Part shown: one piece after another, positions 1 through 26,140 of the stretch
Layout of the letters: every line of letters starts with the position of its first letter
Numbering within the stretch: the stretch's first letter is position 1
IMG/VR virus record: IMGVR_UViG_2734482565_000006
Reading direction: 5' to 3' (one strand)
Length of the DNA: 38,835 bases
Origin: a virus
Lineage: Duplodnaviria > Heunggongvirae > Uroviricota > Caudoviricetes
Notes under the pieces: model-generated
The model's input: the letters and a program-made list of their open reading frames with translations, nothing else
The model's database searches: none
Told to the model about the DNA's origin: nothing
Translations under genes and position numbers: made by a program

Positions 1-103
1 GCAGCCAGCTTTCCAGGGATTTCAGCAGCGGTTTCGTTTTCAACTGACGTTCGGCAAGGCGCTGTTTCAGCAGGAAGATGTCGTCAGAAGAGATGTCGTT
101 CAT
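1..103 (-). CDS. host gene, 5' end only (runs off window)
   Basis: Minus-strand ATG at 103..101 opens a frame reading MNDISSDDIFLLKQRLAERQLKTKPLLKSLESWL to the window edge; it lies outside the prophage and downstream of a hairpin at 104..127. No strong SD seen. Confidence 0.35.
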   Translation of the reverse strand, partial: MNDISSDDIFLLKQRLAERQLKTKPLLKSLESWL

Positions 104-152
104 AAGCCCGTATTTTACCGGGCTTATTCTGTGACAACCAGGATAAAGAGAT

Positions 153-180
153 TTACAGCATGGTCAGGGAGGTCAGCAGC
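153..180 (-). other. displaced 3' end of the host ORF interrupted by the prophage
   Basis: Minus-strand frame ...CTG CTG ACC TCC CTG ACC ATG CTG TAA (stop at 153..155) is in phase with the host ORF fragment at 38792..38835 when the prophage is removed at the CAGCAGC repeat. Confidence 0.45.
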
Positions 181-206
181 CGCTTAGGCTGTCTATAGCG
201 CGGCGA

Positions 207-277
207 TTTTTTTGATACCGATTTGCATTTCATTTGATACCGCTGAAAAACGCCGATACGCAACTTATTTGATACTA
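207..277. repeat. attR-side array of three closely spaced putative transposase-binding repeats (TTTGATACCGA-like)
   Basis: Motif TTTGATACCG at 211..220 and 233..242, and TTTGATACT at 268..276, in one orientation; the reverse complement recurs at the other prophage end. Confidence 0.6.
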
Positions 278-321
278 AATCGGCGCTTTTCTTTTGAGTT
301 TTAGAATGAGTTTTTAAGCGT

Positions 322-1059
322 TCATTCACTCTCTTTCAAACCAGTTTTAACTGTTTGTGGTTTTGGGTAAGGCTGGACTTTGAATAGCTTTGTGTTAAGG
401 CGTTTTCTGGCTCTCTTGTCCAGAAACCGGATGTAACGAAACTGACGGAATTTATGAACACTGGCTCTGTCGATATTAGCCCGCAGATGTTCACCTCGCT
501 GTCCTCCTCGTTTGATTGCATTCTTGCAAATCTCGTGATACCACTCGCCATCAAGTTCATAGAATGTTGTTTCATGACTGCCTACATAATCAAAATTGCT
601 TGCCTGGTACACGACACCAAGACAGCCACAACGCTCATCTGCAAACGACTGAACCCACTGCACCTGCGGATAAAGTTGTCTGATTAGTTTGAGCGCGTAA
701 CTGATTGCCCTTGATTCGGAGTTTCTCGGCATACAGTCATGCAGCCATAACCGGTTAAGCTCCATATATTCGCGGTTCTGCGTGCCAGTTACGACGCGTG
801 CACCATTGTTTGGATTAAGGGCATAACCCCATTGCATTACGCCAACCAGCTCCCGTTCTGAAAATATGCCCAGATGAAGGTAGGAATTATTTACGAAACG
901 ATGGCTGTAATGTTTATTGACGACGACCAGCCGGGCCAGCCAGCAACTTATTGTCTCAACCCGTAACTCACGGGAGCCATAACCGACGATATTGTCGTTA
1001 TAGTGAATAAGTTCAGGCGTGCTGATGATACGGGATGTAACTTGCTTTCTGTTCCCCAC
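322..1059 (-). CDS. mom: DNA modification protein Mom
   Basis: Located immediately downstream of and overlapping com at the Mu right end, as in Mu. The long ORF (322..1254) has no internal ATG near the com stop; the GTG at 1059..1057 is preceded by AAGGAA and gives about 245 aa. The start is inferred. Confidence 0.7.
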
Positions 1060-1213
1060 GACAGGATTTCCTTGTGTATGTGGGGTGCTCTGTGGCGCTC
1101 TGAGATGTGATTTGATTGAGGGTTTTACAGCGCGGACATTTAACTTCCAGATAACTGAAGCTGGCTCGTGCCAGTAGCTTGTTACAATGTCGGCACCGTA
1201 TGTTTCGATACAT
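1013..1213 (-). CDS. com: Com, zinc-finger translational activator of mom
   Basis: Translation [35 protein letters not shown]... matches the Mu Com pattern (IRCxxCNKLL...CPRCK, two CxxC pairs). It overlaps the mom 5' end. The start is taken at the internal Met of the 81-aa ORF. Confidence 0.8.
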
Positions 1214-1260
1214 GGCCGCATAACCTCCTGCTTTGTTGTTGATATCTTTATCACTCAATC

Positions 1261-1346
1261 GATCGACAAAAACGATCGATTTGATTTATTTAATTGATAC
1301 AACAAATAACACGAAATGTCATTAGCGAAAATTTATGAGTTTGATC
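1261..1346. promoter_or_regulatory. mom upstream regulatory region with three GATC (Dam) sites
   Basis: GATC at 1261..1264, 1274..1277 and 1343..1346, within about 130 bp upstream of com in an AT-rich tract. In Mu the mom promoter is controlled by Dam methylation of upstream GATC sites. Confidence 0.4.
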
Positions 1347-1469
1347 ACTAATTTTAAACGGTGCTGTAACGCATAAGTGCTGAATGATTGTACATTTGAA
1401 TACCGCAAAGCAAACAAATCAACTAATTTATAGAAGTCAATTGGTTAATTGCCAGCGTAAGAGGCTGCT

Positions 1470-1763
1470 ATGGACAATCATGTAACGACGAGAAATCGAA
1501 AAATGATTGAAAATGCGGAAATCTATAATGATTATTTTTCCGATTATTCAGATGCCTGCAAATACAGTTCGAGTGCGGGAGAGTTCATATGCTTCAACTT
1601 TTTTATTAAATCTTATGTTTTTCCTCCACAGCAAGAAGATGGAGGTGTGCCACCTCCTGAAATCACTTTGCACCGTATAGCCTCCGTCTCAATGATGGAG
1701 CAACAGGCTAATGAGCTGTATAGCATTCTGGGAACGATTCTACAAAAGCGTGAATCGGACTAA
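1470..1763 (+). CDS. hypothetical protein (AT-rich, divergent from com-mom)
   Basis: 97-aa ORF with AAGAGG 8 nt upstream of the ATG; low GC relative to the phage core; no recognisable motif. Confidence 0.5.
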   Translation: MDNHVTTRNRKMIENAEIYNDYFSDYSDACKYSSSAGEFICFNFFIKSYVFPPQQEDGGVPPPEITLHRIASVSMMEQQANELYSILGTILQKRESD

Positions 1764-1897
1764 TGATACCGGTTCATTTGCCTGCCCGGATGGGGAAGCA
1801 GGATTGACTGCTCCATAAGCAGCTATATTTCTGAATACGAAATACTATCCAGCGATTACATATGGCTGGATAGCGGCAAAGATGTTTTCATTAGTGT

Positions 1898-1925
1898 CAA
1901 ACCGGCAGAGGACACCACCGGTTTG
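1898..1925. terminator. hairpin between convergent genes (possible bidirectional terminator)
   Basis: CAAACCGG-12 nt-CCGGTTTG perfect 8-bp stem between the + ORF 1470..1763 and the - ORF 1931..2185; a second 9-bp-stem hairpin CTATCCAGC/GCTGGATAG lies at 1845..1873. The U-tract is weak. Confidence 0.3.
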
Positions 1926-1930
1926 TATTG

Positions 1931-2185
1931 TTACATCATGGTACTGTCAGTTCCGGGCTGAGCCGGGTCTGGTTGCTCTGGCTGCGCGTCGGTTTTCGGC
2001 TCATTATCAGCATCACTGGCCGCAACTGCTGGCCCAATAAGTTTTGCCAGCACTTCATCAACGTAAGTGTCGATTTGTGCCTCAAAATCCTTGCGGACCT
2101 GCGCTTTCAGCAACTTATTTACTTCACCGGAATACAGTGCCTGTTTTACCAGGTCTTCAGTGACGGTGCCTTTAATTTCTGGCAT
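1931..2185 (-). CDS. hypothetical protein (acidic, Pro/Gln-rich C-terminus)
   Basis: 84-aa ORF with a canonical AGGAGG SD 7 nt upstream of the ATG at 2185. Confidence 0.55.
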   Translation of the reverse strand: MPEIKGTVTEDLVKQALYSGEVNKLLKAQVRKDFEAQIDTYVDEVLAKLIGPAVAASDADNEPKTDAQPEQPDPAQPGTDSTMM

Positions 2186-2220
2186 GTATATCCTCCTTAT
2201 GCGGGAATAAAGCCCTGCAA

Positions 2221-2403
2221 TCAGGGCTGGGTCGGGTCTTTTGGGAGCGGAGTTACCTGCGCTGTTTTACTGAGTTTTTCAGCTGCTGCGTCCTCAATTT
2301 TGCGGCGAACATAATTTCTGATGGCCTTATAACCACCACTCACCAGATATAACGCACATACTGCCGTGCAGAAATACAATAAAATAAGCTGTAAAAATGT
2401 CAT
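2221..2403 (-). CDS. small membrane protein (one predicted TM helix)
   Basis: Start taken at the internal ATG 2403..2401, preceded by GGAGG. Product MTFLQLILLYFCTAVCALYLVSGGYK... has a hydrophobic N-terminal helix followed by a charged tail. Confidence 0.5.
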   Translation of the reverse strand: MTFLQLILLYFCTAVCALYLVSGGYKAIRNYVRRKIEDAAAEKLSKTAQVTPLPKDPTQP

Positions 2404-2499
2404 TATCCCTCCCAATTATTGACATGGTGTTGACACCGGTAATATCTGTTAGGTAAAAAGGTGCACTGCATTTTTTGCTTTGGATATAACGATCTTTTT

Positions 2500-2540
2500 G
2501 CCGCCGGTTTCTTGTTTTCCCTTACCGGCGGCATTTTTTT
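2500..2540 (+). terminator. intrinsic terminator (plus-strand orientation)
   Basis: GCCGCCGGT-15 nt-ACCGGCGGC stem followed by ATTTTTTTA, with CTTTTT just upstream. The T-tract is only on the + strand. Confidence 0.5.
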
Positions 2541-2547
2541 ATCCTGC

Positions 2548-4602
2548 TTACGCGTTATTCACTTCCACCACGATACTGTCAATCAGTACCGGGTAAGTCG
2601 CATTTTTAGTGATATCGGTCACGCGCAACTTGTCTGCCGTAAACGTGCCGACCGGAGACTGCGACAGCATGAATGGTGTCCCGTCCTTACCATCAATGAC
2701 CGGCGTCACCTCAATACTGTTGTTACCGGCAAAACGGAAGCCCAGCGTATGCCATTCGTTATTAAATGCGCCGAATGACCCCAGCTTCGTGTTCTGCGCC
2801 GTGTTTCCTTTGTGATACATCACGTTAAGGTCTGTGGCATCGCTCTGTACGTAGAACGATGCCAGCAGGTTATGACCGGCATTTCCTTCCAGAGTAACCC
2901 CTTGCGGCAGGGCAGAAACCGGCCAGTACAGCGCCAGTGCGTACTGATTAGCCGTAAGCGCGCCATCGAGTTTAAAACGACAACTGACAAGACCACCTTT
3001 ACCCAGCAGGTCCGCACCATTACCAGCATCATGCTCAAGGTACCAGGGGGCTCTTCCTGTTTCCTTGGTCAGTTTCATTGCCTTACCCCCGCTGGCTCCG
3101 GCATCATCCACGATTTGAGCCTTGCCACCTCCGGCAGCCCAACCCTGTGGTGTCAACCGTCCTTCAGACTCAGATGCCCGGTAAGCAAATAGCGTACTCA
3201 TCGTCGTGGTGTCTGCGGGTGGCGTGGACGGTTTTGATGGTGTATCAGGTGACGGCTTCTCATCCGGTGGTGTCACGGTCTGCCCACGCATCAGTTCAGC
3301 CGTGCGCCCTGCATGGAGCATAATAGCTGAGGCCAGACGGTCTGAAATGACGCCCCTGCGTGCCCATGAGCTGAAATGGCTGTCACGCTGTGTCGAAACA
3401 AAACTGCCCTGGGTTCGGGATGCTGCACCGTAATACCCGACAGCCACAATATCCGGGTCTTCCGCCGGAGCATTCGTTGGCGTGCTCTGTCCATTCTCAT
3501 CCGTCAGGAACGGTACAAAGAAAATTTTCTGTGCTTCCTTGCCTTTGTAGCCACCGTATACTGCCTCATATTTATCGGTGCCAGCGTTTTTCCAGTAATA
3601 CGTGGTATCACCGCAAATCCACGGCACCGTGGTGGCATTTCCACTCACGCACTGCGCAGCAAGCGGAGCCAGGTCAGTTCTGAACTGCTGAACCATGGCC
3701 GTGAATAAACTATTATGCTGCTGGCTTCCTGAGGCAAGGTCTGCCTCTCCCTGCATCCAGACCACAGCCAGAAGTTTGTTTTTCGGGTTTTTCGCCAGCG
3801 CGACTTTGGTGCGGCTTACCAGGTCCTGATACAGAGGTTTACCGGCCCCCCAGCGTGAAGAATCAGCGGAAGCACCGCTGGCCTCACTGAATGAGCCGTC
3901 GGCTCCAGTGGTGAATGCTGACCCGCCACGACAACAGGGCACCAGAAGTATCCCGGCATTCTGTGGGATATAGGGAAGCAGTTTTTTGGCAATATGCAAC
4001 CCCTGACCGACAGTCCCGTACTGGCCTTTTGCCAGATCAGCTTTCGGGTGGTTTATCCCGCTCATATCCTGAACATCATGCAGGCAGTGGTCTGCCGGAA
4101 TGATGTCGTTGTATGTACACGACGTACCGTTGGGCGTTACCGTACTGCGGCGTGCCAGTTGCTTAATGCGTGGGTCCGGGCGGTCAAACGAATCCGGTAA
4201 CGGCAGCCCCTCGCCGTAGGCCATGCCATTTGACTGACCCGCGAGAATGACAACAAAGTAATATTCCGGCTCTGAACTGCTGCCATTCGTGCTACCGGAA
4301 GGCCCGGCGTTATCCGGTGCATTCCAGTCGGAGGGCGTGAGCGTTCCGGCCACGTCAGATGTGATTGGAATGATGCCAGTCACGCCTGAACTGGTGATTT
4401 CTGCACTGGGATTACCGGATACCGGCATTACCCATAATGGCTCTTTCGTGCTGAAGCGGATCACGCAGTCTGCGAAGGTGATCCCCCCTTTATTACCCGA
4501 AGGGCGGAAAGGGCTTTCAATAAATGCCACCGTGCCACCGGCAACCTTGACTGAAAACTCTCCGGGCATGGCGGAGAGCATTTTCCACTTGGAGTCTGAC
4601 AT
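2548..4602 (-). CDS. SGNH-hydrolase / sialate-O-acetylesterase-like protein (prophage NanS-p-like) with C-terminal putative carbohydrate-binding domain
   Basis: 684 aa. A central block YFVVILAGQSNGMAYGEG ... VVWMQGEAD resembles the GQSN and QGE(A/S) motifs of SASA/DUF303 esterases. It sits as cargo between gin and com-mom; the SD is weak. Confidence 0.65.
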   Translation of the reverse strand: MSDSKWKMLSAMPGEFSVKVAGGTVAFIESPFRPSGNKGGITFADCVIRFSTKEPLWVMPVSGNPSAEITSSGVTGIIPITSDVAGTLTPSDWNAPDNAGPSGSTNGSSSEPEYYFVVILAGQSNGMAYGEGLPLPDSFDRPDPRIKQLARRSTVTPNGTSCTYNDIIPADHCLHDVQDMSGINHPKADLAKGQYGTVGQGLHIAKKLLPYIPQNAGILLVPCCRGGSAFTTGADGSFSEASGASADSSRWGAGKPLYQDLVSRTKVALAKNPKNKLLAVVWMQGEADLASGSQQHNSLFTAMVQQFRTDLAPLAAQCVSGNATTVPWICGDTTYYWKNAGTDKYEAVYGGYKGKEAQKIFFVPFLTDENGQSTPTNAPAEDPDIVAVGYYGAASRTQGSFVSTQRDSHFSSWARRGVISDRLASAIMLHAGRTAELMRGQTVTPPDEKPSPDTPSKPSTPPADTTTMSTLFAYRASESEGRLTPQGWAAGGGKAQIVDDAGASGGKAMKLTKETGRAPWYLEHDAGNGADLLGKGGLVSCRFKLDGALTANQYALALYWPVSALPQGVTLEGNAGHNLLASFYVQSDATDLNVMYHKGNTAQNTKLGSFGAFNNEWHTLGFRFAGNNSIEVTPVIDGKDGTPFMLSQSPVGTFTADKLRVTDITKNATYPVLIDSIVVEVNNA

Positions 4603-4687
4603 CGTCTTTTCTGCCTGTTTCTGAATTAAACAGAGTCAGAATAGCGACCGCTGAAAAATATGTGTTTTGCGGAAATTCAAAAAAGCG

Positions 4688-5260
4688 TCACGGTACTTTT
4701 GGTGACGGAGCTGGTGAGGCAGGAAAATAACGATAAAGGGTGGAAAGGCCAATATCAAATATCAGTGCGATTTGTTTACGGGACTCGCCATTAGCCAGCA
4801 AACGGGCGATTTGCTCCCGCTCTTTCTCTGTCAGTTTCTGAGGTCTGCCGCCATGACGCCCCTGAGCACGGGCAGCAGCAAGACCCGCGCGTGTACGTTC
4901 AATAATGAGTTCCCGCTCCATTTCCGCCAGCGCGCCCATTATATGGAAAAAGAAACGTCCCATGGGAGTGGATGTATCAATATTGTCCGTAATGCTGCGG
5001 AAGTTAACGCCGCGTTGCCGGAGTTCTTCTGTTAAAAGGACAAGGTGCTGCATACTGCGTCCAAGGCGATCCAGTTTCCAGACCAGCAGGGTATCCCCTG
5101 GCCGGAGTCGCTTTAATGCGCGTTTAAGTCCGGGACGCTCCCTTGTCTTACCGCTTATTCTGTCTTCGAAAAACAGCTCACATCCTGCACATTCCAGCGC
5201 ATTTCTTTGTAGCGCCGTATTCTGGTCATTTGTTGACACCCTGATATACCCAATCAGCAT
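4688..5260 (-). CDS. gin: serine DNA invertase Gin
   Basis: MLIGYIRVSTNDQ... is a resolvase/invertase N-terminal catalytic motif; 190 aa; C-terminal HTH; adjacent to an inverted-repeat-bounded tail-fibre segment. Confidence 0.95.
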   Translation of the reverse strand: MLIGYIRVSTNDQNTALQRNALECAGCELFFEDRISGKTRERPGLKRALKRLRPGDTLLVWKLDRLGRSMQHLVLLTEELRQRGVNFRSITDNIDTSTPMGRFFFHIMGALAEMERELIIERTRAGLAAARAQGRHGGRPQKLTEKEREQIARLLANGESRKQIALIFDIGLSTLYRYFPASPAPSPKVP

Positions 5261-5325
5261 ACGATTTCCTTATTATAAAAAGCCGGAATTGTCGCATGAG
5301 GAATAAAACAGAGTTAATCCTGGCT

Positions 5326-5351
5326 TTCCTGAAAACCTCGGTTTACGGGAA
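5326..5351. repeat. gix-like recombination site (gin-proximal)
   Basis: TTCCTGAAAACC TC GGTTTACGGGAA: imperfect palindrome around a central TC, similar to the gix/hix consensus. The inner arm begins a 71-bp inverted repeat (5337..5407) matching 6530..6600 with 2 mismatches. Confidence 0.6.
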
Positions 5352-5642
5352 ACGGTAAACAGGGCGGCGAATGCTCTGCCATCGGACGGCACCGCCGTTG
5401 CCGCGAATAGACTCGCCACCCCAAGAAATATTAATGGGGTTCCCTTTGACGGGACGCAGGATATCAGGCTGGGAGCAGAGAACAGGCAGGTAATGTACGG
5501 TGGGGCATATTACTCTGCGTACGGTAATGTTATGGCAGGCCTGCAGATTGACAGTAAAGTTGATGCTTCAAACGATTTTATAGCATTCAGACCCCTGCAA
5601 AAATTAGTCGGAGGTACATGGATTACGGTATCTCAGTTATAA
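5337..5642 (+). CDS. promoterless alternative tail-fibre C-terminal cassette (S'v), silent in this orientation
   Basis: No start codon. The frame [27 protein letters not shown]... matches residues about 175-200 of the S protein, then diverges to a different 75-aa tip ending TWITVSQL; stop at 5640..5642. Confidence 0.6.
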   Translation, partial: LGLRETVNRAANALPSDGTAVAANRLATPRNINGVPFDGTQDIRLGAENRQVMYGGAYYSAYGNVMAGLQIDSKVDASNDFIAFRPLQKLVGGTWITVSQL

Positions 5643-5693
5643 ATAGTCAGTAAATAATATATTTTAAAACAGATTTATTTCCAGGAGGATTTT

Positions 5694-6215
5694 ATGGAAC
5701 TAAAAAATATAACCCGTTATTATCCTGAAAATATGCCATATGGTAATAATGTTCAGTATTTCCAGAGTGAAGATGGTAAGGATTTCTACGAATCCCTGCC
5801 ATTATTCACCAAAAAATATAAACTTTGCATAACACCTGACAGCGGCGTTATCTGCTCAATATCACAGGACGCCTCGGCGCTGTATCCTGCGGGGTTTTCT
5901 GTGGTTGAGGTCGATGAACTCCCTGAAGGCACGGATATTTCAGGAAACTGGAAGTTTGATAATGGCATAATCTCCCGTATTCCGGTTAACTACGCAAGAA
6001 AACTGGAAGCAATGCGCCAGTCATATCTTAATCAGGCATATGAAAAAATTAATGACTGGAGAACGGAGCTACAACTGGGCACCATCAGCGATGAAGACAG
6101 AGCAGCACTTACCCAATGGATGGCATACATCAGTCAGGTGAAGAAAATGGAACTACCCGCCATTAAAACAGAAGCTGAATTTAACGCCATTAAATGGCCT
6201 GAGCAGCCACAGTAA
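5694..6215 (+). CDS. tail fibre assembly protein (U'-like)
   Basis: 173 aa with AGGAGG SD; Tfa-like composition and C-terminus; inside the invertible segment and in the inactive orientation relative to the late operon. Confidence 0.8.
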   Translation: MELKNITRYYPENMPYGNNVQYFQSEDGKDFYESLPLFTKKYKLCITPDSGVICSISQDASALYPAGFSVVEVDELPEGTDISGNWKFDNGIISRIPVNYARKLEAMRQSYLNQAYEKINDWRTELQLGTISDEDRAALTQWMAYISQVKKMELPAIKTEAEFNAIKWPEQPQ

Positions 6216-6218
6216 TAA

Positions 6219-6236
6219 AGAAGGCCGGAAGGCCTT
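6219..6236. terminator. hairpin between convergent U' and S genes
   Basis: GAAGGCC GGAA GGCCTTC 7-bp stem; on the minus strand it is followed by TTTATTA. Confidence 0.4.
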
Positions 6237-6246
6237 CTGAATATCA

Positions 6247-7128
6247 TTATATACTTGCAGCCGTCACCCATGCTCCATTTAACAGATACTGCAACGGCCG
6301 GTAATACACGCCGCCGACGTTATCTGCCGTATTCTTACCGACATCCTGTACTTTAATTCCGGTAAGAACATTGCCGCCCCCCAGATTCAGATCCCAGCTT
6401 TCCCATGTTCCGGGCATATGTGCGGTCACCGACCCCAGTCTTATGGCGGTTACTGTTCCTGATGAGATAGTGATATCCTGCGTCCCGTCAAAGGGAACAC
6501 CATTAATTGTGTGGGCATTTGCCAGCCTGTTCGCGGCAACGGCGGTGCCGTCCGATGGCAGGGCATTCGCCGCCCTGTTTACCGTTTCCCGTAAACCGAC
6601 GTTATCGATAAAAGCCCCTTTATCCGGAATGTCTGCGCCGTTCTGCTCCCTGCGCAGGTAACGGTTATCACCTTCGCTTTTGCTGTAAACATCCAGATTA
6701 TTACGGGCGGTTCCCTTATTCTCCAGGTCGGCGAGATTCTGATCCTTCGCCAGGGCATTAACGTCAGCGGGACCAAGACTGTTTTTTGTGGCAAGCGTCC
6801 CCAGACCAAGATAACCACGGGCCAGACGCTGGGCCTCCGCACCGGCATCAGCAATTTCTTTCAGGTTATTTTTCCGGGAAAAGGCATTCGCAGCGATAAT
6901 GGCTTTAATGGACAGCGTAAGCTGGTTTAACTGCGCCTTATCCGGCTGAATACTGGCTTCAGCCAGAATATTCAGCAGTTCGGCCTGGAGAATATTCAGC
7001 CAGTCCTGACCAATCCAGCTGATACCTTTTTGTCCGTCACCTTCGGTAAACCAGGTGGTGGTATTACTCTGCGCCGGTGCCAGCGCAGGCATATTCGCCA
7101 CGCCGGAATTATTATCAACATGAAACAT
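6247..7128 (-). CDS. tail fibre protein S (constant N-terminal part plus variable tip currently in frame)
   Basis: 293 aa; its start overlaps the gp48 stop; the C-terminal about 117 aa lie inside the invertible segment, and the gix-like site falls within the coding sequence. Confidence 0.75.
6586..6611. repeat. gix-like recombination site inside the S gene
   Basis: TTCCCGTAAACC GA CGTTATCGATAA; the inner half is identical to the reverse complement of the site at 5326..5351, with the central dinucleotide GA versus TC. Confidence 0.6.
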
Positions 7129-7688
7129 TAAATAGTCTCCTCTTCATGGCTGTTTGCATAAACGTAAATAAACGTCTGCCATGCAGGCTTATAACGGTTC
7201 AGAATACATTCCAGCGCACCGCCTTCATAAATACGCAGCGGCGTGAGAATATCATCCAGCACATTCATATTCCGGTAGCCGGTTTCACTGTTAATCGTGA
7301 CAATACTGACCCACTGCGAATCCGGTGAGGGCTGAATGTCAATCTGATAACCAAACTCCGCCGCAAACCGGATATAAAATTCACGGTTCAGCGAGGGCTT
7401 CATCCGGTATTTATTTCCGGCATAACGCTGTCGCTCCGTGAGGGTGGCTCCGGCCATATCACACTCGGGAAGCCCGAGATAACGCTCCCAGTCTTCCAGC
7501 AGCAGGCGCGACGTGTCAGGGAAACGCTCGGCAAGCAGCTGTTTACCCGTCCAGGATACACGCGCTGTCGAATGACTGAGGCCCAGACATAATGATGCCA
7601 GTACGGATGACGGACGCTTGTCCCATGCCAGCCCGTCAGGCAGTAACTGCAACAGGGCGCGCTGATGCGGGGTCAGGGTTACAGCCAT
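7128..7688 (-). CDS. baseplate/tail protein (Mu gp48-like)
   Basis: 186 aa; position between the baseplate J-like gene and the tail fibre gene; translationally coupled on both sides. Confidence 0.65.
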
Positions 7689-8761
7689 GTGATTTCTCCT
7701 ACCGTCAGCAGCTCACTGTCTCCCGCCTGAACTGACGTCAGCGGACTGCGCACTTCAAAATCCTCCAGATTTTTCACCCCTGCCACCGCCCGCCAGAAAG
7801 ACGACGGCAGAACCAGACCGCCGGGCCGGGATTCGTTATACAACAGGTCGGTCAGCGCCTGTTTTACGGCCGCCTGATTCTCCGGTGTTTTCGGGATGAT
7901 CCTGATGCTGAAGGGCACCGGCTTATTGGTCAGTTTAAACACGGTCACCGTCGGCCCCAGAGGCTGTCCGACAGGCTGGCCGGTCGCCGGATCATCATGA
8001 CTGCGGATATAATCCGCCACCCGCTGAACATCACCGTCACCGGGGAAAATATCCGGGTTATTATCCTGAACAAACGTTACCCCCACGCTGCCCGCCTGCG
8101 GCCATTCCGGGCGGCACCATGCCCGCGTCACGCCCGGCACTTCACGCGCCCAGCGTTCAAAATCATACTGCGTGCCGCCGGACGGTGGATTCTGCACCCG
8201 GAAAACCAGACGGGAAAGCAGCTCCGGCACGGTTTCCACATCCGCACCACCGGTGATCCCCGTTCCGGTCACCGTGGCCGTCTGGTTGATCCCCGCCTGC
8301 GGTGTGATAAATGTCAGTTTTGTCCCTGCCGGGGCATTCCCCGCACGACCGGCACTTTCGGCTTCCACACTGACATTCAGCGTACCGGCCTTACCGGTCA
8401 GGGAGGTGGTGATACGGTAAACCACGCCATCACTTCGCTGGAGAAGCACACCTTCCTTGATCCCCGCATCCGTGGTCAGCATCAGCTGAACCGGCCCGTC
8501 CCCCCGAGAGGCAGGCTTACGCATGACGCCCCAGAATGCACAGTGTTTCAGCAGTTCGGCTTCATCGGCTTCGGTCGGGATGATCTGACGCGCAATCCAG
8601 GCCAGATGCTCATGCTCCTGAGCAGATAACCCTGCCTGAGCGTAAGCAATGGCATTCAGGGTGGTTTCATTCACACCCGGCTGCGAGCCGGGCAGGCGCT
8701 GGCTGATATCCTGCTGTGTCTGCGTGATTAACTGTGCCAGCGGTAAAGGCTGATAAGGCAT
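7679..8761 (-). CDS. baseplate J-like protein (Mu gp47-like)
   Basis: 360 aa; position and size typical of the baseplate wedge J family in Mu/P2-type tails. Confidence 0.75.
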   Translation of the reverse strand: MPYQPLPLAQLITQTQQDISQRLPGSQPGVNETTLNAIAYAQAGLSAQEHEHLAWIARQIIPTEADEAELLKHCAFWGVMRKPASRGDGPVQLMLTTDAGIKEGVLLQRSDGVVYRITTSLTGKAGTLNVSVEAESAGRAGNAPAGTKLTFITPQAGINQTATVTGTGITGGADVETVPELLSRLVFRVQNPPSGGTQYDFERWAREVPGVTRAWCRPEWPQAGSVGVTFVQDNNPDIFPGDGDVQRVADYIRSHDDPATGQPVGQPLGPTVTVFKLTNKPVPFSIRIIPKTPENQAAVKQALTDLLYNESRPGGLVLPSSFWRAVAGVKNLEDFEVRSPLTSVQAGDSELLTVGEITWL

Positions 8762-9198
8762 TACTCCCCCTTAAGATCAGCATAAAAAATCATGGGCCTC
8801 ACTGAACCATCAGGCAGGGTTATGCGCACCGAAAGCGCCAGCCGCGCGTGTCCCACACGTTCTGCATGACAGACCACGGATGACGCCACGCCATCCTGAC
8901 TGAGCCAGCCCAGCGCCTCATCCGCGTAAGCACGGGCACGGCTTATCACCGAGGCCAGCGTTTTTTCCCGGCTGAGAAGCCACAGACGGGAGCCAATGGG
9001 GCGCGGGCGAAAACTGTCTCCCCACCATCCCCGGCGGTCGCGCGTACCGTCAGGGATTTCATCCGATGCCAGCGCCCGGCGGTCAGTAAACAGCGAAATC
9101 AGAACGGCCGTCAGCAGACTGTCATCCGTCAGCAAGTCGGCACCGTTCAGTTGCAGCGAACCGCACCCCTGATCCCATACAATTGCAATATCAGCCAT
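8761..9198 (-). CDS. baseplate protein (Mu gp46 / W-like)
   Basis: Start taken at the internal ATG (MADIAIVWDQG...), giving an 8-bp ATGGCTGA-type overlap with the upstream gene; the longer ORF to 9342 would overlap gp45 by about 150 bp. Confidence 0.6.
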   Translation of the reverse strand: MADIAIVWDQGCGSLQLNGADLLTDDSLLTAVLISLFTDRRALASDEIPDGTRDRRGWWGDSFRPRPIGSRLWLLSREKTLASVISRARAYADEALGWLSQDGVASSVVCHAERVGHARLALSVRITLPDGSVRPMIFYADLKGE

Positions 9199-9805
9199 TC
9201 TCCGGCGCTCCTGTCTTACTGCCTTTGCCGTTATCCTGATGCACATGGCCGGAATAGGTGATCCCGGCAATAACGGCATCAGACATCGTGAACAGCCCGT
9301 CTGATTTACCTGTACCATCAAGCACGAAATTACCCTTAACATGCAGGTTTTTATCCACCGTCACATTGCCCGTAAAGGTGGCCTCCGGCGTATCCACCCG
9401 CATCCCCTCATCGGCGTAAATCTCCAGCATTTTGCATGTCACAATAATGCGACCATCCTTTGTTAACCGTATCCGGTGCCCCTCATGGTGATACACCCCC
9501 GTATCTCCGGCTGTGAGTCCGGTCGGGCGGCTGCGCCGGTCTTCCACCACAAGCACCACAGTCTGATCCCGCTGTCCGCCCAGACAGGCAAAAAAGGTTT
9601 CCGCACCCGGCAGGGGAACGCTGATCTGCCCGTACTGCTGGGGACGCTCCACATCATCAAAGGTTTCGCCGTCCATGCCGGTGAGCTGCACATTCTGCAT
9701 TTTCAGTTCGTCATGTGTGCCGGTCAGAACGCCCCGGCCAAACAACAGGCGAATACCGCGCGTTACCGGGGCAATCAGGCGGCTGAACACTTCATCATTC
9801 ATCAA
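9191..9805 (-). CDS. baseplate assembly protein V / spike (Mu gp45-like)
   Basis: 204 aa; gpV-like size and position between the gp44 and gp46 homologues. Confidence 0.7.
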   Translation of the reverse strand: MMNDEVFSRLIAPVTRGIRLLFGRGVLTGTHDELKMQNVQLTGMDGETFDDVERPQQYGQISVPLPGAETFFACLGGQRDQTVVLVVEDRRSRPTGLTAGDTGVYHHEGHRIRLTKDGRIIVTCKMLEIYADEGMRVDTPEATFTGNVTVDKNLHVKGNFVLDGTGKSDGLFTMSDAVIAGITYSGHVHQDNGKGSKTGAPENG

Positions 9806-10919
9806 AGCTGATCCCCTGTTTTTTCATCTGCTGGCGAATAAAGGCATCAACATCGTCACCGGAACCACCCCGGCCCTTACTGTCCGGCTCTGCCGGAACG
9901 ATAAAGCCGTCACGCGGTGCCAGTACCAGCCGGGTGACTTCCCCGTTATGTTCATCAAGTAAAAACTCCACCTGACAGACCAGCAGTTCAGTCTGTTCTA
10001 TACCGAAACGCAGGGCTGAAACACCGGTCAGCAGATTGACATCCCATAACCGGCCATCATCCCGGAACCAGCCACGCACGGTGGCAGAAAACCGTTCTGA
10101 ACGGGCAATCGCACGGCGCATTTCACGCAGGGCACGCTGCCGTGCACCGGTGGTGTCTGTCTGTTGATCGGCGAGGATGATTTTCGACCGGTAGCGGCCG
10201 ATCTGCTCATCACTGATGACGCCCACAGGTGCTGCCAGACGGGCGGCGGATTCGCTGTCTCCCCGTTTGCCACCACCGCGCCCGTGTCCCCGGACACGGT
10301 ATTCGCTGTATCGTCCTCGCCAGTCCGTGTTGTAATCGGCATCAAGCAGGTTATCTCCCAGCACCAGTCTGTCCGTCTGCTGGCTTCCTGCCTGGGTGAA
10401 CACCAGATCGCCGTCAGCATTACTGGTCACCAGCACCCCGCGATGCCGGGCAGCACGGGTCAGCGCATCCGCCACGGTTTCTGAGTTTTCCAGCGTAAAA
10501 GAGCTGAAGGGGCGTGCAGCCGTGTCGTCGTTAACCTGCCAGCGCACGGCTATCCCGAAGGGCGCACATAAATCTGCGGCAATCTGTGCCAGCGTCCGGT
10601 TGCGCCACTGGCTGCCGGGATGGATGGCGGCACAGTCCACCAGGTCGCCGGTTTTATCCCGACCGCTGATGCTGATCTGATGACGGGTTGCACTGATCCG
10701 CTGACTGACCTGATCCAGCCAGCCACTGATGACCGTCTGCCCGTTAATTCTGAGCGTCAGGGACTGACCGGTTCGCAGGGCTGAGGGGATGCGCTCACCG
10801 GGCAGCATCAGCCCCAGTTCAAACGACCCGGCCAGATGCTCCAGCGAGCGACGGACGCTGACCGTCAGCCAGCCGGAAAAAATACTGCCACCGATATACA
10901 GTTCAATCCTGCTGCTCAC
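9795..10919 (-). CDS. tail/baseplate hub protein (Mu gp44 / Q, P2 gpD-like)
   Basis: 374 aa; follows the DNA circularisation gene and overlaps its neighbours, as in Mu. Confidence 0.7.
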   Translation of the reverse strand: MSSRIELYIGGSIFSGWLTVSVRRSLEHLAGSFELGLMLPGERIPSALRTGQSLTLRINGQTVISGWLDQVSQRISATRHQISISGRDKTGDLVDCAAIHPGSQWRNRTLAQIAADLCAPFGIAVRWQVNDDTAARPFSSFTLENSETVADALTRAARHRGVLVTSNADGDLVFTQAGSQQTDRLVLGDNLLDADYNTDWRGRYSEYRVRGHGRGGGKRGDSESAARLAAPVGVISDEQIGRYRSKIILADQQTDTTGARQRALREMRRAIARSERFSATVRGWFRDDGRLWDVNLLTGVSALRFGIEQTELLVCQVEFLLDEHNGEVTRLVLAPRDGFIVPAEPDSKGRGGSGDDVDAFIRQQMKKQGISFDE

Positions 10920-12261
10920 TGATCACCTCCACGCTGCGGCCACCCGGAACAAAAACCGGATCGGGGATATTGTTTCTGCGGACAAAATACTGCCAGCGAC
11001 TGCTGTTGCCGGTGGCACGGTACAGCGTGACCAGTGCCGGTTCGGTGGTGCGAACCATGACCTGAAAAGCACCGGGAAGATGCACGCTCCGTGTGGTTAA
11101 ATCTTCTGTCAGCGCAAGCCCTGCATCACGTAATGCAAGGGCAGTCCCGGTATAGCCCTGTGCGGACAGATCCAGCACCTGTTGTTCCATGGCATCGCTC
11201 AAATCCCGGTTGATACGCTGCACATCAGCAGAACTTTCCAGCCAGGCCAGTCCGCCCGAACGGTCAGTATCCTGAACGTGCGTCGTATTCTGCCGGATGA
11301 CCTGATCCAGCAGTTTTCCGAGCGTCTGTGCCTGCGACACCAGGGTTGCACTCTGCATCACGCTCCGCAGCAGACGGATATTTTTCTGTGCCGCAGGCGT
11401 CAGGCCAATCAGGCGCTGTGGATCATCCTGTTCGCTGAGGGTGTAACGCAGGGAGGAAAGTGTGCGGTACAGCTGCGGCATGGCCTGCTCTGCCATGCTG
11501 TCACGGTTTGTGGTCAGGCTGCCGGACGGCGTTCCGGCTTTTCCGGTCAGAGACAGGGAAGGATCGCCGGGCAGCCCGGTCAGCACGGCAAACATTCCGG
11601 CCAGCGATTCAGCCATGCGACGGGGCGCATTAATCAGGGCGGCGGCATTGCCTTTCAGGGCAGTAAAACTGGCCGTAAAGGCACTGATATCCTGCACAAT
11701 CCCCATCCCCGAAACGGCATTCTCCAGTGCATCAATCTTATCGCTGATGGTGTCGGTCATGGCCTGTACATCATGCAGACCGTCTGAAATCACCGTCCAG
11801 CCGTCTGAAAGCGTGTTAAACAGCTGATTCATTGCTGAGCCGCTTTTCTGCTCCAGCGCAGCTGCCGTATCTTCTGCCACCGCAGGGGCGGTATCGTCAC
11901 TGGCGGGGATCACGTTGATCGTGAACTCAACCGTTCCCTGCTCGCTGGCGTTATAACGGCTTTCAAAGCTGTTTATCAGCACGTTTAACGTGCCGTAATC
12001 CGGGTGCATCAGTTCACCGGCACCGGGTGCACGCAGCGCATCACGCAGGCGGCTTCGCTGTGTCTGAAGATCGTCTCCGGTCACCAGAACCGTGAATGTG
12101 AACTCCGGGAGTTTTGGCCCCAGATCATCCGCACCGCCGCTTTCACGCAGTGGGTATTCACGGCGCACAATGTTACGTCCGCCCCGTTCCCGCTGCTCCT
12201 GATAAACCAGGAACGGTACGCCACGAAAGGAGCCACGCCCCGGCGTGTCAGTAGAGGCCAT
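10903..12261 (-). CDS. DNA circularisation protein (Mu gp43 / P-like)
   Basis: 452 aa, immediately downstream of the tape measure gene; Ala/Leu-rich helical protein. Confidence 0.7.
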   Translation of the reverse strand: MASTDTPGRGSFRGVPFLVYQEQRERGGRNIVRREYPLRESGGADDLGPKLPEFTFTVLVTGDDLQTQRSRLRDALRAPGAGELMHPDYGTLNVLINSFESRYNASEQGTVEFTINVIPASDDTAPAVAEDTAAALEQKSGSAMNQLFNTLSDGWTVISDGLHDVQAMTDTISDKIDALENAVSGMGIVQDISAFTASFTALKGNAAALINAPRRMAESLAGMFAVLTGLPGDPSLSLTGKAGTPSGSLTTNRDSMAEQAMPQLYRTLSSLRYTLSEQDDPQRLIGLTPAAQKNIRLLRSVMQSATLVSQAQTLGKLLDQVIRQNTTHVQDTDRSGGLAWLESSADVQRINRDLSDAMEQQVLDLSAQGYTGTALALRDAGLALTEDLTTRSVHLPGAFQVMVRTTEPALVTLYRATGNSSRWQYFVRRNNIPDPVFVPGGRSVEVISEQQD

Positions 12262-14305
12262 AGTTCCCTCCGTTCCAGACGTTCACATCCAGGCCATGCT
12301 GTGCGGTATCATCCACATCAATACTGCGCGCCCGCCAGCCTTCAGGGGCAACAAGCTCCACCCGTGCGGCGGTTTTCGCGGTGGCCTGTCCGCCGTTTTC
12401 GTCACTGCCGCCACGCAGTTTCTGCCAGGCCTGCGTCAGCCAGCCCCCCAGATAATCACCGAGATAGCTGCCCACCGTGGAACCAATGGCAACCCCGACC
12501 GGACCGGCAGCCGCCCCCAGCGCGCCACCGGCGATACTTCCGGCAAGGGAACCCACGGCACCGGCTTTATCGGCTGCACTGGCGCTGCTGTCCAGCAGTA
12601 CAGGAGCCGCCATGGCACCGGCCCACAGGGCACCACCACCCAGCCGACCGGCACCACGGAACAGCCCGGCAAAACGCCCCAGCCCCATGCGGTTTCCGGC
12701 CGCCGTTAGCAGACCACCGGCACGGCTCATCATACGACCGAAGAAGCCCTGTTTACCGGCACTCTCCGCCAGTTGCTCACCGGCAGTCACGACGGTCGTG
12801 ACACCCCGTCCACGTCCGGGGCCGCGTTTTTTACGGCCGCGCACGGTTTTGCCGTCACCGCTGACCACCACATCCCCGCCACCTGAGGCCAGGCCACCCG
12901 CAGGCCAATTGGTGACCAGCACGGGCTGAACGGCAGCCGGATTTACCCCGGTAAGGAAATTCAGGAACCGGCCAGCGCGTCCGGGCTGCGTTCCCGGTAC
13001 AGTGGTCTGCGGTTTGCGGAAGGGCGACGTCAGCACGGAGGTCATCGCCATGCCATAGCGTAAGGGGGTTGCGCCGAGACGTAATGCCCCCGTCCCCGCA
13101 AACCTGAGCACCTTCAGCGCACGGGAGGCGAGATACATATACATCAGGTACTTTGCGGCGGTCTGCGCACCCTGACCAATGCGATCCAGCGCATCGCCAT
13201 AACCGGCGTCGCGCAGTGCCTGAAGCGTTTCCCTGACTTTCTGAATGACCCGGTAAAAGCCGGTCGCAGCGTCTCTGGCATACTCAAATCCCTGATTCAG
13301 GGCTGAGGCCGTCTGTGTGGCCAGCTTATCCTGTAAGCCGCTTTTCTGTGCCGCATCAGCATAATCCAGAAAGCCTTTCAGGCTCTTTTTCAGGCTGTCA
13401 AACGGTCCCTTTGCCATCACCTCGCGGGCAAATCCGTCCCAGACATCGCCCATCATGGACGTCATTCCCGTCCAGGAATTCATGGCGTTTTTCTGGGCAC
13501 CTTTTGCCTGTTCGGCCATCACCTGAAATAACAGGCGAATGCTGTCCGGTCCCAGTTTTCCTTTCTCGCCTTTCTCACGGATGATCTTCTGGTTTACACC
13601 CAGCTTATCGGCCAGCAACTGGTAAACGTTAATCCCGTATCCGGTCAGAATATTGGCGTCCGCTGCCTGGATACTCTGGCGGGCAAACATCTGTTTGAGT
13701 TGCAGGGACGCACCCTGTGCATCTGACAGTGACCAGCCGTGATAGCCGCCCTGATCCTGAAGCATGGTAATAAAGCGACGGGCTTCCCTGTCACTCATAC
13801 CGAACCCGCGACTGGAGGCGTATTCCTGCATAACCCCCGCCAGCCCCCAGGTGGTGTCTTTGGCGTTCTGTACCGCCCAGGCTTTCACTGCTTCCGTTTT
13901 TGCCGTATCGCCATGATTAATGGCGTTGAGACGCAGAATATAGTTCTCCATCTCTGCGGCCGGGCGGATAAAGGCTTTATTAAACCCGTAGACCGCAGCC
14001 CCTCCCGCCAGCATCCCGTAAAGGTTGCTTATCCGCCCGATGGTGCCGGTAATGCTGCCCTGAAGGCGGTCAAAATCTGACGTCACCGTGCGGATACTGC
14101 CACGAACACCGGCAAGCGTTCGCTGCATACGGGAGCCGACAAGTTCTGTCTCCTGACCGGCACGACGTGCTGCATTTCCAAGACCACCCAGCCCCGTCCT
14201 GCCGGAACGGGAGAATGCCCCCAGCTCCTGTGACCACTGGCGGGATTTGGCAGAAATATTGCCGAGTAAATCGACAATCAGGGAGGCTTTCAGGTTTTTT
14301 GCCAT
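12248..14305 (-). CDS. tail tape measure protein
   Basis: 685 aa; extended Gly/Ala-rich C-terminal region and helical N-terminal part; positioned after the tail tube and chaperone genes. Confidence 0.85.
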   Translation of the reverse strand: MAKNLKASLIVDLLGNISAKSRQWSQELGAFSRSGRTGLGGLGNAARRAGQETELVGSRMQRTLAGVRGSIRTVTSDFDRLQGSITGTIGRISNLYGMLAGGAAVYGFNKAFIRPAAEMENYILRLNAINHGDTAKTEAVKAWAVQNAKDTTWGLAGVMQEYASSRGFGMSDREARRFITMLQDQGGYHGWSLSDAQGASLQLKQMFARQSIQAADANILTGYGINVYQLLADKLGVNQKIIREKGEKGKLGPDSIRLLFQVMAEQAKGAQKNAMNSWTGMTSMMGDVWDGFAREVMAKGPFDSLKKSLKGFLDYADAAQKSGLQDKLATQTASALNQGFEYARDAATGFYRVIQKVRETLQALRDAGYGDALDRIGQGAQTAAKYLMYMYLASRALKVLRFAGTGALRLGATPLRYGMAMTSVLTSPFRKPQTTVPGTQPGRAGRFLNFLTGVNPAAVQPVLVTNWPAGGLASGGGDVVVSGDGKTVRGRKKRGPGRGRGVTTVVTAGEQLAESAGKQGFFGRMMSRAGGLLTAAGNRMGLGRFAGLFRGAGRLGGGALWAGAMAAPVLLDSSASAADKAGAVGSLAGSIAGGALGAAAGPVGVAIGSTVGSYLGDYLGGWLTQAWQKLRGGSDENGGQATAKTAARVELVAPEGWRARSIDVDDTAQHGLDVNVWNGGNYGLY

Positions 14306-14308
14306 GGG

Positions 14309-14509
14309 TTACTGCTTCGTTCTGAGAATTTTTTCGGTCTGTCGGCAGTGCCGGTAAAGCTGCGATAAGGGGAGGTTAAGCGCCCACTCCGGGCCGCTTT
14401 TTGTCACCATCCCCAGCACAATTGCGGCTTCTTCAATCTGATCCCGGCACTGCATCTGGTCGCCCCCGTTCAGCGACCAGCTTTCCGGCCATCGCGGAAT
14501 CAAGCAGGC
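14309..14509 (-). CDS. open frame filling the gap between tail chaperone and tape measure (possible +1 recoding extension or independent small ORF)
   Basis: A 66-codon open window in the +1 frame relative to gp41 begins right after a UAA at 14510..14512, overlaps the last 25 codons of gp41 and ends 4 nt before the tape measure ATG. An internal ATG at 14455 has GGGGG upstream. Confidence 0.3.
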   Translation of the reverse strand, partial: ACLIPRWPESWSLNGGDQMQCRDQIEEAAIVLGMVTKSGPEWALNLPLSQLYRHCRQTEKILRTKQ

Positions 14510-14909
14510 TTACTGCCGCCATCAGTCGGGAGAGATCGCGCTCGCTGAGCTGTCCTATCTGACGCGGAGACAATGGCCCCTCAATCTGGCCGACAGCGGC
14601 AATCTGACGGCGCAGCAGCGCAATGCCGCGCAGTGCCGGTGAGGCCACAAGAACCGGACCGTTTCGGGTTTCCATAAGACGCTCGGCCTCGCTCTCCGCA
14701 TCAATGCTGTCTTTTGCCGTCAGTTCGCGGAAGGTGACGCGGTATTCACGGGATTCCCCGAACGGCAGACCGTCGAGCAGATCCACATAGCCGTTCGCCA
14801 GTTGTTCAGCCAGCCCGGCGGTGCGGGGATCGCCGTCTTCAAGTGCATCCCGGATAGCCTCCATCACGGCCTCGTCAGAAACCGCCGTTTTTTTCTTACG
14901 TGTGCTCAT
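14433..14909 (-). CDS. tail assembly chaperone-like protein (Mu gp41-like)
   Basis: 158 aa, acidic, located between the tail tube and tape measure genes. Confidence 0.6.
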   Translation of the reverse strand: MSTRKKKTAVSDEAVMEAIRDALEDGDPRTAGLAEQLANGYVDLLDGLPFGESREYRVTFRELTAKDSIDAESEAERLMETRNGPVLVASPALRGIALLRRQIAAVGQIEGPLSPRQIGQLSERDLSRLMAAVSLLDSAMAGKLVAERGRPDAVPGSD

Positions 14910-14923
14910 TACATTTTTCCTGA

Positions 14924-15289
14924 TTACTGGACACGGGTACTGGTGGCGCTGGCGAACTTCGCGGAGATATCACCACCACCGTCAAGCGAGGCCGGTTCAC
15001 TGCTCCAGGCCTTCGTCATCATGTGGACTTCACCGGTATCGGCCACGAACTCAATCGTGACCGCAGTCCAGGTGTTGATTTCATCGGCAGCCGGTGAACC
15101 TTCTCCGCCCGCCGGGAATTTACAGTCCAGCGTCGCCTCACGGGGTTTCTCGCGATAGCCGTAAACTTTCGCGCCTTTCACCACTTCACGCTCAAAGCCG
15201 GACGGGGAGAACGTGGCCCCCTCAAGGGTGTCGTACTCCTGCCCGTTCACACGGATGGTGGCCGTGCCCTGATACTGTTTTCCGCTCAT
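14924..15289 (-). CDS. tail tube protein (Mu M-like)
   Basis: 121 aa, immediately downstream of the sheath gene. Confidence 0.8.
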   Translation of the reverse strand: MSGKQYQGTATIRVNGQEYDTLEGATFSPSGFEREVVKGAKVYGYREKPREATLDCKFPAGGEGSPAADEINTWTAVTIEFVADTGEVHMMTKAWSSEPASLDGGGDISAKFASATSTRVQ

Positions 15290-15297
15290 GCCTTACC

Positions 15298-16800: not shown

Positions 16801-17078
16801 CAGGACGTCCCCTTATCTGATGCTGCGGTTTTTTCAGCCACCGCCGCAGTTTTTTCTGCTACCGCTCCCGCTGGTTTTGCCGCCGCGCCGGTATTAGCAG
16901 TTGTGGCAGCCGGGGCAGGCTCCGCCGTTTTATCCACCACAATGACGTCGCCATCATTAAGACGGCGGCACCAGAACGGAGTGAAGGGTTTCTCTTCCCC
17001 GTCCTGAGAGAGCGGAGTCATCGTGTCGGGATCGCGGATCAGGCATCCCGGCGCAGGTTTAATAAAAATGGTTGTCAT
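16800..17078 (-). CDS. small Ala-rich protein (Mu gp38-like)
   Basis: 92 aa with a tandem AAVAEKTAA peptide repeat; position between the K-like and sheath genes. Confidence 0.55.
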   Translation of the reverse strand: MTTIFIKPAPGCLIRDPDTMTPLSQDGEEKPFTPFWCRRLNDGDVIVVDKTAEPAPAATTANTGAAAKPAGAVAEKTAAVAEKTAASDKGTS

Positions 17079-17081
17079 CTG

Positions 17082-17645: not shown

Positions 17646-18061
17646 ATAAAGCCCTTCTGGTTGCGCCCGAACACCGCCGCATCAGACTGCACCTGCGGTA
17701 AATCCCCGGATTCAGGGGCCGCACCGTCTGTATCCACGCCGACCGGCACGTTACCGTTCATGACATCTTTCAGCCAGGCCAGCGCCTCACGGTAACGGTC
17801 ACGCGCCTGATCGGATGCCCGCTGATCGCACAGGTAATAAAAGGCAATCGTGCAGCAATGCTGAACAAGGACCGCCGGAACCACCGCCAGCGGCAGCGTG
17901 TAACGGGAAGACAGATAGCTGTCGATAAGGGCAGACGCGTCCGTCAGTGCCCGGTTCAGCTTGCGCGTGTCCGGTTCATCCGAACGGGGCACGGCCAGTA
18001 ATGGCCTGAGCAAATCCTCGCGGTAACGTGCCCGCATATCGGTTTCGGTGGCGTAATTCAT
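17642..18061 (-). CDS. head completion protein (Mu gp36 / J-like)
   Basis: 139 aa; 4-bp overlap with its neighbours; called from position. Confidence 0.6.
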   Translation of the reverse strand: MNYATETDMRARYREDLLRPLLAVPRSDEPDTRKLNRALTDASALIDSYLSSRYTLPLAVVPAVLVQHCCTIAFYYLCDQRASDQARDRYREALAWLKDVMNGNVPVGVDTDGAAPESGDLPQVQSDAAVFGRNQKGFI

Positions 18062-18417: not shown

Positions 18418-18460
18418 ATTTGCCCTCCGCAGGGGCCGGGCCGTAAGCCCGGCTCACCGT

Positions 18461-26130: not shown

Positions 26131-26140
26131 GATTCACCTC

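Follow-up and report, generated by a model that had tools for sequence, protein, structure and literature searches.

TA termini and a 4-bp target-site duplication at the ends of an Sp18-type Mu-like prophage

Introduction

Where does the Mu-like prophage in this DNA begin on its mom side, and is an end that departs from the Mu pattern a damaged end or a working one? The window (the whole stretch of viral DNA analysed, 38,835 nucleotides) raises the question at positions 181-280, which read cgcttaggctgtc TATAGCGCGGCGATTTT TTTGATACCGA TTTGCATTTCA TTTGATACCGC ... TTTGATACTAA. A sequence-only reading took this stretch for the attR end of a Mu-family prophage, set the boundary at 181 with an apparent CG dinucleotide, and offered three explanations for the lack of the usual TG: a boundary offset by a few bases, a family that tolerates a non-canonical terminus, or a mutated terminus that impairs the prophage. 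The ends of phage Mu have three sites each, are cleaved after the terminal A and undergo staggered strand transfer, and two textbook constants of Mu, its terminal CA and its 5-bp stagger, also hold for HIV integration (PMC3562280). As of 2021, every Mu-like or B3-like end then described was TG-CA, the duplication being 5 bp for Mu and 6 bp for B3 (PMC8705779).

Results

Boundaries of the prophage and its insertion site

Both ends of the window were compared with 5,426 complete E. coli genomes by megablast. The outermost ~190 and ~65 bases of the window belong to a multi-copy element that thousands of chromosomes and plasmids carry, and the interior is a prophage found at many different loci; 226 complete E. 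coli genomes match the mom end near full length. We read the insertion sites from the assembled genomes and aligned the junctions of 10 independent insertions (L001-L010) with those of the window. The shared sequence opens exactly at 194 (TATAGCGCGGCGATTTTTTTGATACC, the same in all 11) and closes exactly at 38769, where the window and L001-L005 read ...GATTCACCTGGTTATA and L006-L010 read ...GGTTACA. Homology between the window and the 10 E. coli insertions is thus confined to the stretch from TATAGCGCGG... through ...GGTTA(C/T)A, and Sakai Sp18 behaves likewise. IMG/VR supplied 15 further mom ends and 21 distinct c-end flanks, which are consistent with these boundaries. Together with uninterrupted ISEc8, the junctions of the independent insertions place the prophage at 194..38769 of the window (38,576 bp), with TATAGCGCGG... 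as its first bases and ...CCTGGTTATA as the last bases before 38770 in the window copy. The mom-side end, attR (194..321, + strand), opens with the terminal 5'-TA (194-195) and extends as far as the mom stop codon, as defined by the start of homology and an alignment of 11 ends, and the c-end dinucleotide at 38768..38769 (+ strand) is TA-3' here and CA-3' in O157-type copies, as seen in the junction alignments. An offset boundary, the first of the three explanations, therefore holds, the true boundary lying 13 bp further in, at 194 and not at 181.

The flanks on both sides are ISEc8 (IS66 family), oriented on the - strand: 1..193 holds the start of a transposase gene (~1-103) and the last codons of tnpB (153-193), and 38770..38835 is the interrupted part of tnpB by comparison with ISEc8. 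In uninterrupted ISEc8, 1-193 runs straight into 38774-38835. The prophage sits within the final 13 codons of tnpB. The reverse case is seen in L005, where two IS66-family elements are inserted within the Sp18-type prophage.

Repeats at the two ends

The three repeats that the sequence-only reading had placed at 211, 233 and 268 are real, as is their close packing in the manner of Mu R1-R3. All three lie on the + strand in the same orientation. The motif scan shows that R1 (211..221) has the exact core TTTGATACCGA, 18-28 nt from the terminus; with the aid of alignment, R2 (233..243) is seen to have the core TTTGATACCGC with one mismatch, 22 bp past R1 as in Mu and 40-50 nt from the terminus, and R3 (268..278) the core TTTGATACTAA with two mismatches, 75-85 nt from the terminus. 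Three inverted copies on the - strand mirror them at the opposite end in the same scan, namely L1 (38742..38752, exact), L2 (38647..38657, exact) and L3 (38595..38605, TTTGATACTGT, two mismatches), at 18-28, 113-123 and 165-175 nt from the c-end terminus. L1 and R1 are symmetric, with 17 nt separating each from its terminus.

Such clustering is far from what chance would give. With up to two mismatches, TTTGATACCGA has 20 matches in the window against 8.8 expected from shuffles, and three matches in one 68-nt span on one strand have a Poisson probability of ~1e-7 per span, or ~1e-4 corrected for all spans. The exact 11-mer TTTGATACCGA occurs four times in the window against 0.02 expected, three of the four within 125 nt of the true ends, and six matches of the TTTGATACCGA type cluster within at most ~175 nt of the two ends. 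In the alignment of 11 ends, the TTTGATAC cores at 18, 40 and 75 are invariant across 5 lineages in which spacers and flanks have diverged. A search of IMG/VR with the pattern TTTGATAC-N14-TTTGATAC returned, among the matches listed, mostly unrelated iterons and ~10 true relatives. Several repeats per end, inverted between the ends, are a mark of transposable (Mu-like) phages that the sequence of this prophage bears. On these grounds, it is very probable that the transposase of an Sp18-type prophage binds the repeats as its R1-R3 sites; should each site span ~22 bp, the length in Mu, R1 would abut R2.

R3 lies in a second feature. An inverted repeat with 13-nt arms (GAAAAACGCCGAT / ATCGGCGCTTTTC, 92% complementary) at 245..291 encloses it, as found by repeat search and RNA folding. 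Read as mom-sense RNA (- strand), 245-291 folds with -21.6 kcal/mol (z = -4.6) and adjoins a U run, and this hairpin is probably the intrinsic terminator of mom, overlapping attR. A terminator scan with a short-loop rule did not call the hairpin at 245-291; a weak stem across the prophage junction that came from the terminator scan was disregarded. Equivalent hairpins of other sequence enclose R3 in two lineages (L061 and the Yersinia-phage type), and none is found in L068 and L163.

The repeats could in principle bind another protein, such as a repressor or a host factor, or merely belong to the mom terminator, since R3 is inside a strong hairpin that resembles one. We regard this as unlikely, because the same motif recurs inverted at the opposite end at an identical distance from the terminus, because the cores are invariant even in the lineages that lack the hairpin (L068 and L163), and because the 22-bp R1-R2 spacing and the layout of L1, gap, L2 and L3 copy those of Mu.

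Other matches and words lie outside the six sites. The fourth exact TTTGATACCGA (18987-18997, - strand) and a one-mismatch copy (18602-18612, + strand) are within the major head gene in mid-prophage. The exact copy is kept in all E. coli family members checked, and its conservation may simply be that of coding sequence. The spacer between L1 and L2 contains a near-perfect palindrome, AGGTGATTTCACCT (38709-38722), with words related to CAGGTGA nearby at 38681-38687 and, on the opposite strand, at 38757-38763; the palindrome might serve as the target of a regulator or of a host bending protein.

Transposition genes

The gene layout is Mu-like, with mom/com on the left and MuB-like, transposase, ner-like and repressor-like genes on the right, and the gene set and the boundaries together bear out the earlier assignment of this region to the mom-side end of a Mu-family prophage. 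The mom ORF (322..1254, - strand) has its Mom domain at residues 96-298 of the mechanically called frame; the Mom annotated in relatives has 245 residues (~322-1059). A MuB-like AAA+ transposition ATPase with Phage-MuB_C and AAA_22 domains is encoded at 34457..35398 (- strand), and transposase A, an intact protein of 695 residues, at 35472..37559 (- strand). A repressor-like HTH protein (c) at 37978..38523 (+ strand) was identified by a domain match and is annotated as a transcriptional regulator in relatives. The A and B reading frames are open in the window copy, and the A and B genes stand next to one end, as in transposable (Mu-like) phages.

A has the domains HTH_Tnp_Mu_1 (the Mu N-terminal DNA-binding domain), rve (a weak match) and Mu-transpos_C, and domain searches and alignment give D308, D374 and E414 as its putative DDE residues, in the motifs WIGDGHG, YYSDNGSG and GIIERLNR. 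It is 23% identical to MuA over the full length, and closer to the transposases of D3112-like phages (~30%) and Pseudomonas phage VW-6B (47%) than to MuA. In a phmmer search against PDB, the matches were confined to the I-alpha domain of MuA and the cores of retroviral integrases.

The transposases of copies with a TA c end and a CA c end are 94% identical, and nearly all differences fall in the first ~60 residues, which indicates that essentially one catalytic core serves both CA and TA. The variable first ~60 residues are a Mu I-alpha-like domain and co-vary with the repressor/ner module and with the c-end dinucleotide. This co-variation suggests a modular exchange of the immunity/enhancer-recognition region.

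No RNA genes were found in the window by ARAGORN and Rfam. In most relatives, RefSeq has a 'tRNA-OTHER' feature located between the genes for head morphogenesis and virion morphogenesis (17774-17853 in L001, corresponding to ~21193-21313 of the window); ARAGORN and Rfam find nothing there in the window.

Terminal dinucleotides and mobility of TA-ended copies

The mom end is 5'-TA in 27/27 Sp18-type copies examined, so the transferred strand ends ...TA-3'; these include 15 ends from IMG/VR contigs, all TATAGCG.... The c end is ...CA-3' in some Sp18-type copies and ...TA-3' in others, the window among them, and the 21 distinct c-end flanks from IMG/VR comprise 16 of TG type and 5 of TA type. This interchange of TA and CA at the c end implies that the penultimate base need only be a pyrimidine. 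Of all dinucleotide steps, CA and TA deform most readily, and a mutagenesis study of Mu ends reportedly implicated flexibility at the terminal step.

When 11 mom ends from 5 lineages were aligned, the flanks were unrelated and homology began at the same T in each. Positions 4-7 (AGCG) are invariant in these ends, and at position 2 four lineages have A and one (L077/L163) has G. The c ends of relatives with a transposase 80% identical (L206, L208 and L210) or 56% identical (L215-L217) open with TATAGAGAGG, TATGAAGAGG or TATTGAGAAGG, each next to a different flank, and the Yersinia phage records vB_YpM_5, vB_YpM_6 and Tongde share the mom end TAAAGCGCGC. A scan of genome contigs with the degenerate end pattern TNTANCNNGGNGANTNNTTTGATACC yielded, among the matches listed, 13 chance matches, all in unrelated taxa.

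At least 10 different sites carry TA-TA copies that share more than 99% identity. These sites include ISEc8, sgrR, a diguanylate cyclase gene, bcsA, flgL and ydcF/elyC along with four or more others, and the duplication is perfect at every one. Therefore, the TA end works and is not decayed. Many unrelated insertion sites with a short duplication are characteristic of transposable (Mu-like) phages. Sp18 DNA is also known to be efficiently packaged, and the location of Sp18 varies between O157 strains (PMC2669165, PMC7430833).

These observations bear on the last of the three explanations, a mutated terminus, and on the broader idea that the TA termini are products of decay and that the prophage is grounded and transposition-defective. 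CA is deemed the conserved cleavage dinucleotide of Mu and retroviral ends (PMC3562280), and the TA-TA ends of Leptospira prophages were termed unusual in 2021 (PMC8705779), which lends the idea some appeal. It is nevertheless very unlikely for a mom end that is TA in every Sp18-type copy and for near-identical TA-TA copies spread over so many loci with perfect 4-bp duplications; moreover, the A and B genes are intact and two other lineages are also TA-TA. The second explanation, tolerance of a non-canonical terminus, fares better: the terminus is indeed non-canonical, but it is TA and not CG.

A 4-bp target-site duplication

A perfect 4-bp direct repeat adjoins the ends in 17/17 independently paired insertions. 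The pairs are the window and L001-L010 (TGTC, TGTT, CGTA, CGTC, TGCG, TCTA, TGTA, GTAC, CTCT, TGAT and CGTG), Sakai Sp18 (TTTA) and five IMG/VR pairs from the same contig or the same genome (TGAT, TGTT, TTCT, GGCA and GACT); further loci were seen as unpaired end flanks. In the window, the two TGTC copies lie at 190..193 and 38770..38773, as seen from the junctions and the empty site. Uninterrupted ISEc8 reads ...CCGCTTAGGCTGTCGCCAGTCG..., the window reads ...GGCTGTC, then 194..38769, then TGTCGCC..., and the empty site, GGCTGTCGCC, has a single TGTC. Three empty sites were checked, those of the window (ISEc8), L004 (flgL) and L010 (nadB). When the flgL and nadB sites were rebuilt with one 4-bp copy, 196/196 bases matched other E. 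coli genomes in one piece. A fifth repeat base fits in 1/11 insertions per side, as chance predicts. A duplication of this length implies a spacing of 4 nt between the target phosphates that the two active sites attack.

As a control, the same procedure was applied to phage Mu in E. coli W, and it returned TGTATTG...GCTTCA with a 5-bp GCCGC repeat. The flanks are unlike a simple insertion in two other cases, the Mu copy of strain ST18 and the record of Yersinia phage Tongde, and the duplication was not readable there. Among relatives with a transposase 80% or 56% identical, 3/3 pairs (mom and c ends from one contig or one genome) have 4-bp repeats (GCAC, CGAC and AGCA) and TA-TA ends. TA ends and 4-bp repeats are therefore a property of the clade and not of one damaged copy. 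We also tried reading the junctions with 5-bp repeats that take in the element's own terminal T or A; each such parse fits 1/11 insertions (L010 and L003), and they fail at the empty sites of the window, L004 and L010.

In phage orientation, the 17 duplications have a pyrimidine at position 1 in 14/17 and G at position 2 in 11/17, roughly YGTN in this small sample. If the target preference is asymmetric, insertion orientation would depend on the target sequence. In the circular assembly of Yersinia phage vB_YpM_6 (MT374854.1, ~3228-3365), non-phage DNA between the mom and c ends is bounded by ATTC twice, as would be expected if a single insertion that duplicated 4 bp had supplied both flanks; no such matching 4 bases are seen in the sister record vB_YpM_5.

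A canonical terminus could still be sought in the TG at 190-191, with a 5-bp Mu-like duplication. Many duplications of the family open with TG or CG and so mimic a TG terminus in a single copy, and the RefSeq feature of Sakai Sp18 is drawn as if from an imperfect 5-bp repeat. This placement is highly improbable, since the bases equivalent to 190-193 vary by insertion (TGTT, CGTA, CGTC, TGCG, TCTA and others), TGTC occurs once in empty ISEc8, and the empty flgL and nadB sites fit 4 bp only. By the terms of the sequence-only reading, its boundary would be refuted by related elements with a true TG terminus elsewhere and a different 5-bp duplication. Related elements do refute it, since the terminus lies elsewhere and the duplication is a different one, but they are TA and 4 bp, not TG and 5 bp. 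The model of that reading, an element beginning at 181 with CG, flanked by 5-bp GCAGC and ending in an expected CA at 38791-38792, is practically excluded even though GCAGC does occur at 176-180 and 38793-38797, because both copies lie in tnpB and, like 181-193 and 38770-38792 (the supposed CG and CA included), belong to the continuous ISEc8 sequence found in thousands of uninterrupted copies, because the empty site refutes it, and because 181-193 is common to no other insertion.

Discussion

The sequence comparisons establish the limits of the element, its TA termini, the 4-bp duplication, the conserved and symmetric repeats, and the repeated movement of TA-ended copies. Taken together, it is highly likely that 194-321 is the attR of an intact Sp18-type Mu-like prophage, that the TTTGATAC-core repeats are its R1-R3 transposase sites, and that its strand transfer has a 4-nt stagger. 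A is only distantly related to MuA, and the Mu mechanism is therefore transferred to it by analogy. By this analogy, we infer that the transposase (gene 35472-37559) is the repeat-binding protein. It would bind R1-R3 and L1-L3 and pair the two ends, and each 3' strand would be nicked right after the terminal A, preceded here by T at both ends (5'-TA...TA-3'). The 3'-OH ends would then be joined to target phosphates 4 nt apart in a staggered strand transfer, and gap repair would leave the 4-bp duplication, TGTC here.

On a wider scale, an enterobacterial Mu-like clade that comprises the Sp18-type prophages and the relatives at 80% and 56% transposase identity, including the Yersinia phage matches, may use 3' ends of TA or CA and a 4-nt stagger, breaking both Mu hallmarks. 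We put this forward tentatively, as a reading with slightly less than even prospects. If it is true, the clade offers a natural, genetically tractable setting in E. coli in which to study how the target stagger is determined and why other systems conserve CA. The natural end variants can be used to probe the role of the penultimate base and the geometry behind the length of the stagger. The family is present in hundreds of complete E. coli genomes. Its functional attR end, with a TA terminus and a 4-bp duplication, is a real if modest departure from the Mu paradigm.

The Sp18-type element and its family were already known; the exact termini and the duplication length appear to be new. Our search of the openly available literature found no 4-bp duplication or TA ends for Mu-like or Sp18-type phages, and the papers on SfMu, KS10, the O157 prophage pool and CC119 mention Sp18 without its ends or duplication. 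In practice, Sp18-type prophages, the RefSeq Sakai feature among them, have had their boundaries mis-set by a few bases, and tools that seek TG...CA with 5-bp repeats will miss or misplace these prophages.

The closest known system is Sp18 of E. coli O157:H7 Sakai, which belongs to the same family, has a mom end identical over at least 45 nt and has the same gene order. The near-identical ends, transposase and gene order make the window prophage an Sp18-type element, and the transposase of an O157-type copy (L010, strain F1273) is 94% identical to that of the window. The window copy differs from Sp18 in its TA-3' in place of a CA-3' c end and in another immunity/N-terminal A module. Sakai Sp18 itself reads ...ttcTTTA|TATAGCG...GGTTACA|TTTAata and is 38,755 bp long. 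The RefSeq feature 'prophage Sp18, Mu-like phage' (NC_002695.2, 5040971-5079729) begins at GTAACC, one base short of the true c end (TGTAACC), and ends ...CTATATAAAG, five bases past the true mom end; it looks as if its ends were drawn from the imperfect 5-bp repeat TAAAT/TAAAG, and the corrected ends give a clean 4-bp TTTA/TAAA. Earlier work already credits Sp18 with six putative transposase-binding sites (PMC2628397, citing Morgan 2002).

By their published description, the Leptospira prophages of the WETA1 group resemble the window prophage in being transposable, with TA...TA ends and identical copies at different sites, on which ground they were judged active; they differ in their 6-bp duplications, B3/Tn552-like transposases and spirochaete hosts (PMC8705779). 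The window prophage thus shares the TA at both ends with this group, but has a duplication of 4 and not 6 bp. Among transposable phages of Pseudomonas, the junctions of the D3112-like phage Ab30 are offset by 5 bp (PMC5977238) and B3 makes a 6-bp duplication; D3112-like and B3-like phages are reported to be TG-CA ended (PMC8705779).

Compared to Mu, the likeness lies in the architecture. Both have three sites per end, inverted between the ends, with the first site abutting the terminus, an R1-R2 spacing of 22 bp, and a spacer of ~85-95 bp that sets L1 apart from L2-L3; in both, the A+B pair adjoins the c end and mom/com lie at the opposite end. A sequence scan of the Mu ends placed R1 at 6-27, R2 at 28-49, R3 at 56-77 (inverted), L1 at 6-27 and L3 at 151-172 nt from the terminus, and did not recover L2. 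The differences lie in the details. R3 is inverted in Mu and direct in the window prophage, the site sequences are unrelated (a TTTGATACCGA core here, ...RCGAAAR in Mu), and the second D and the E are ~40 residues apart in the A protein compared to 56 by the residue numbers of MuA. Two defining features of Mu sensu stricto, the 5'-TG...CA-3' termini and the 5-bp duplication, are replaced here by a TA terminus at the mom end, TA or CA at the c end, and a duplication of 4 bp.
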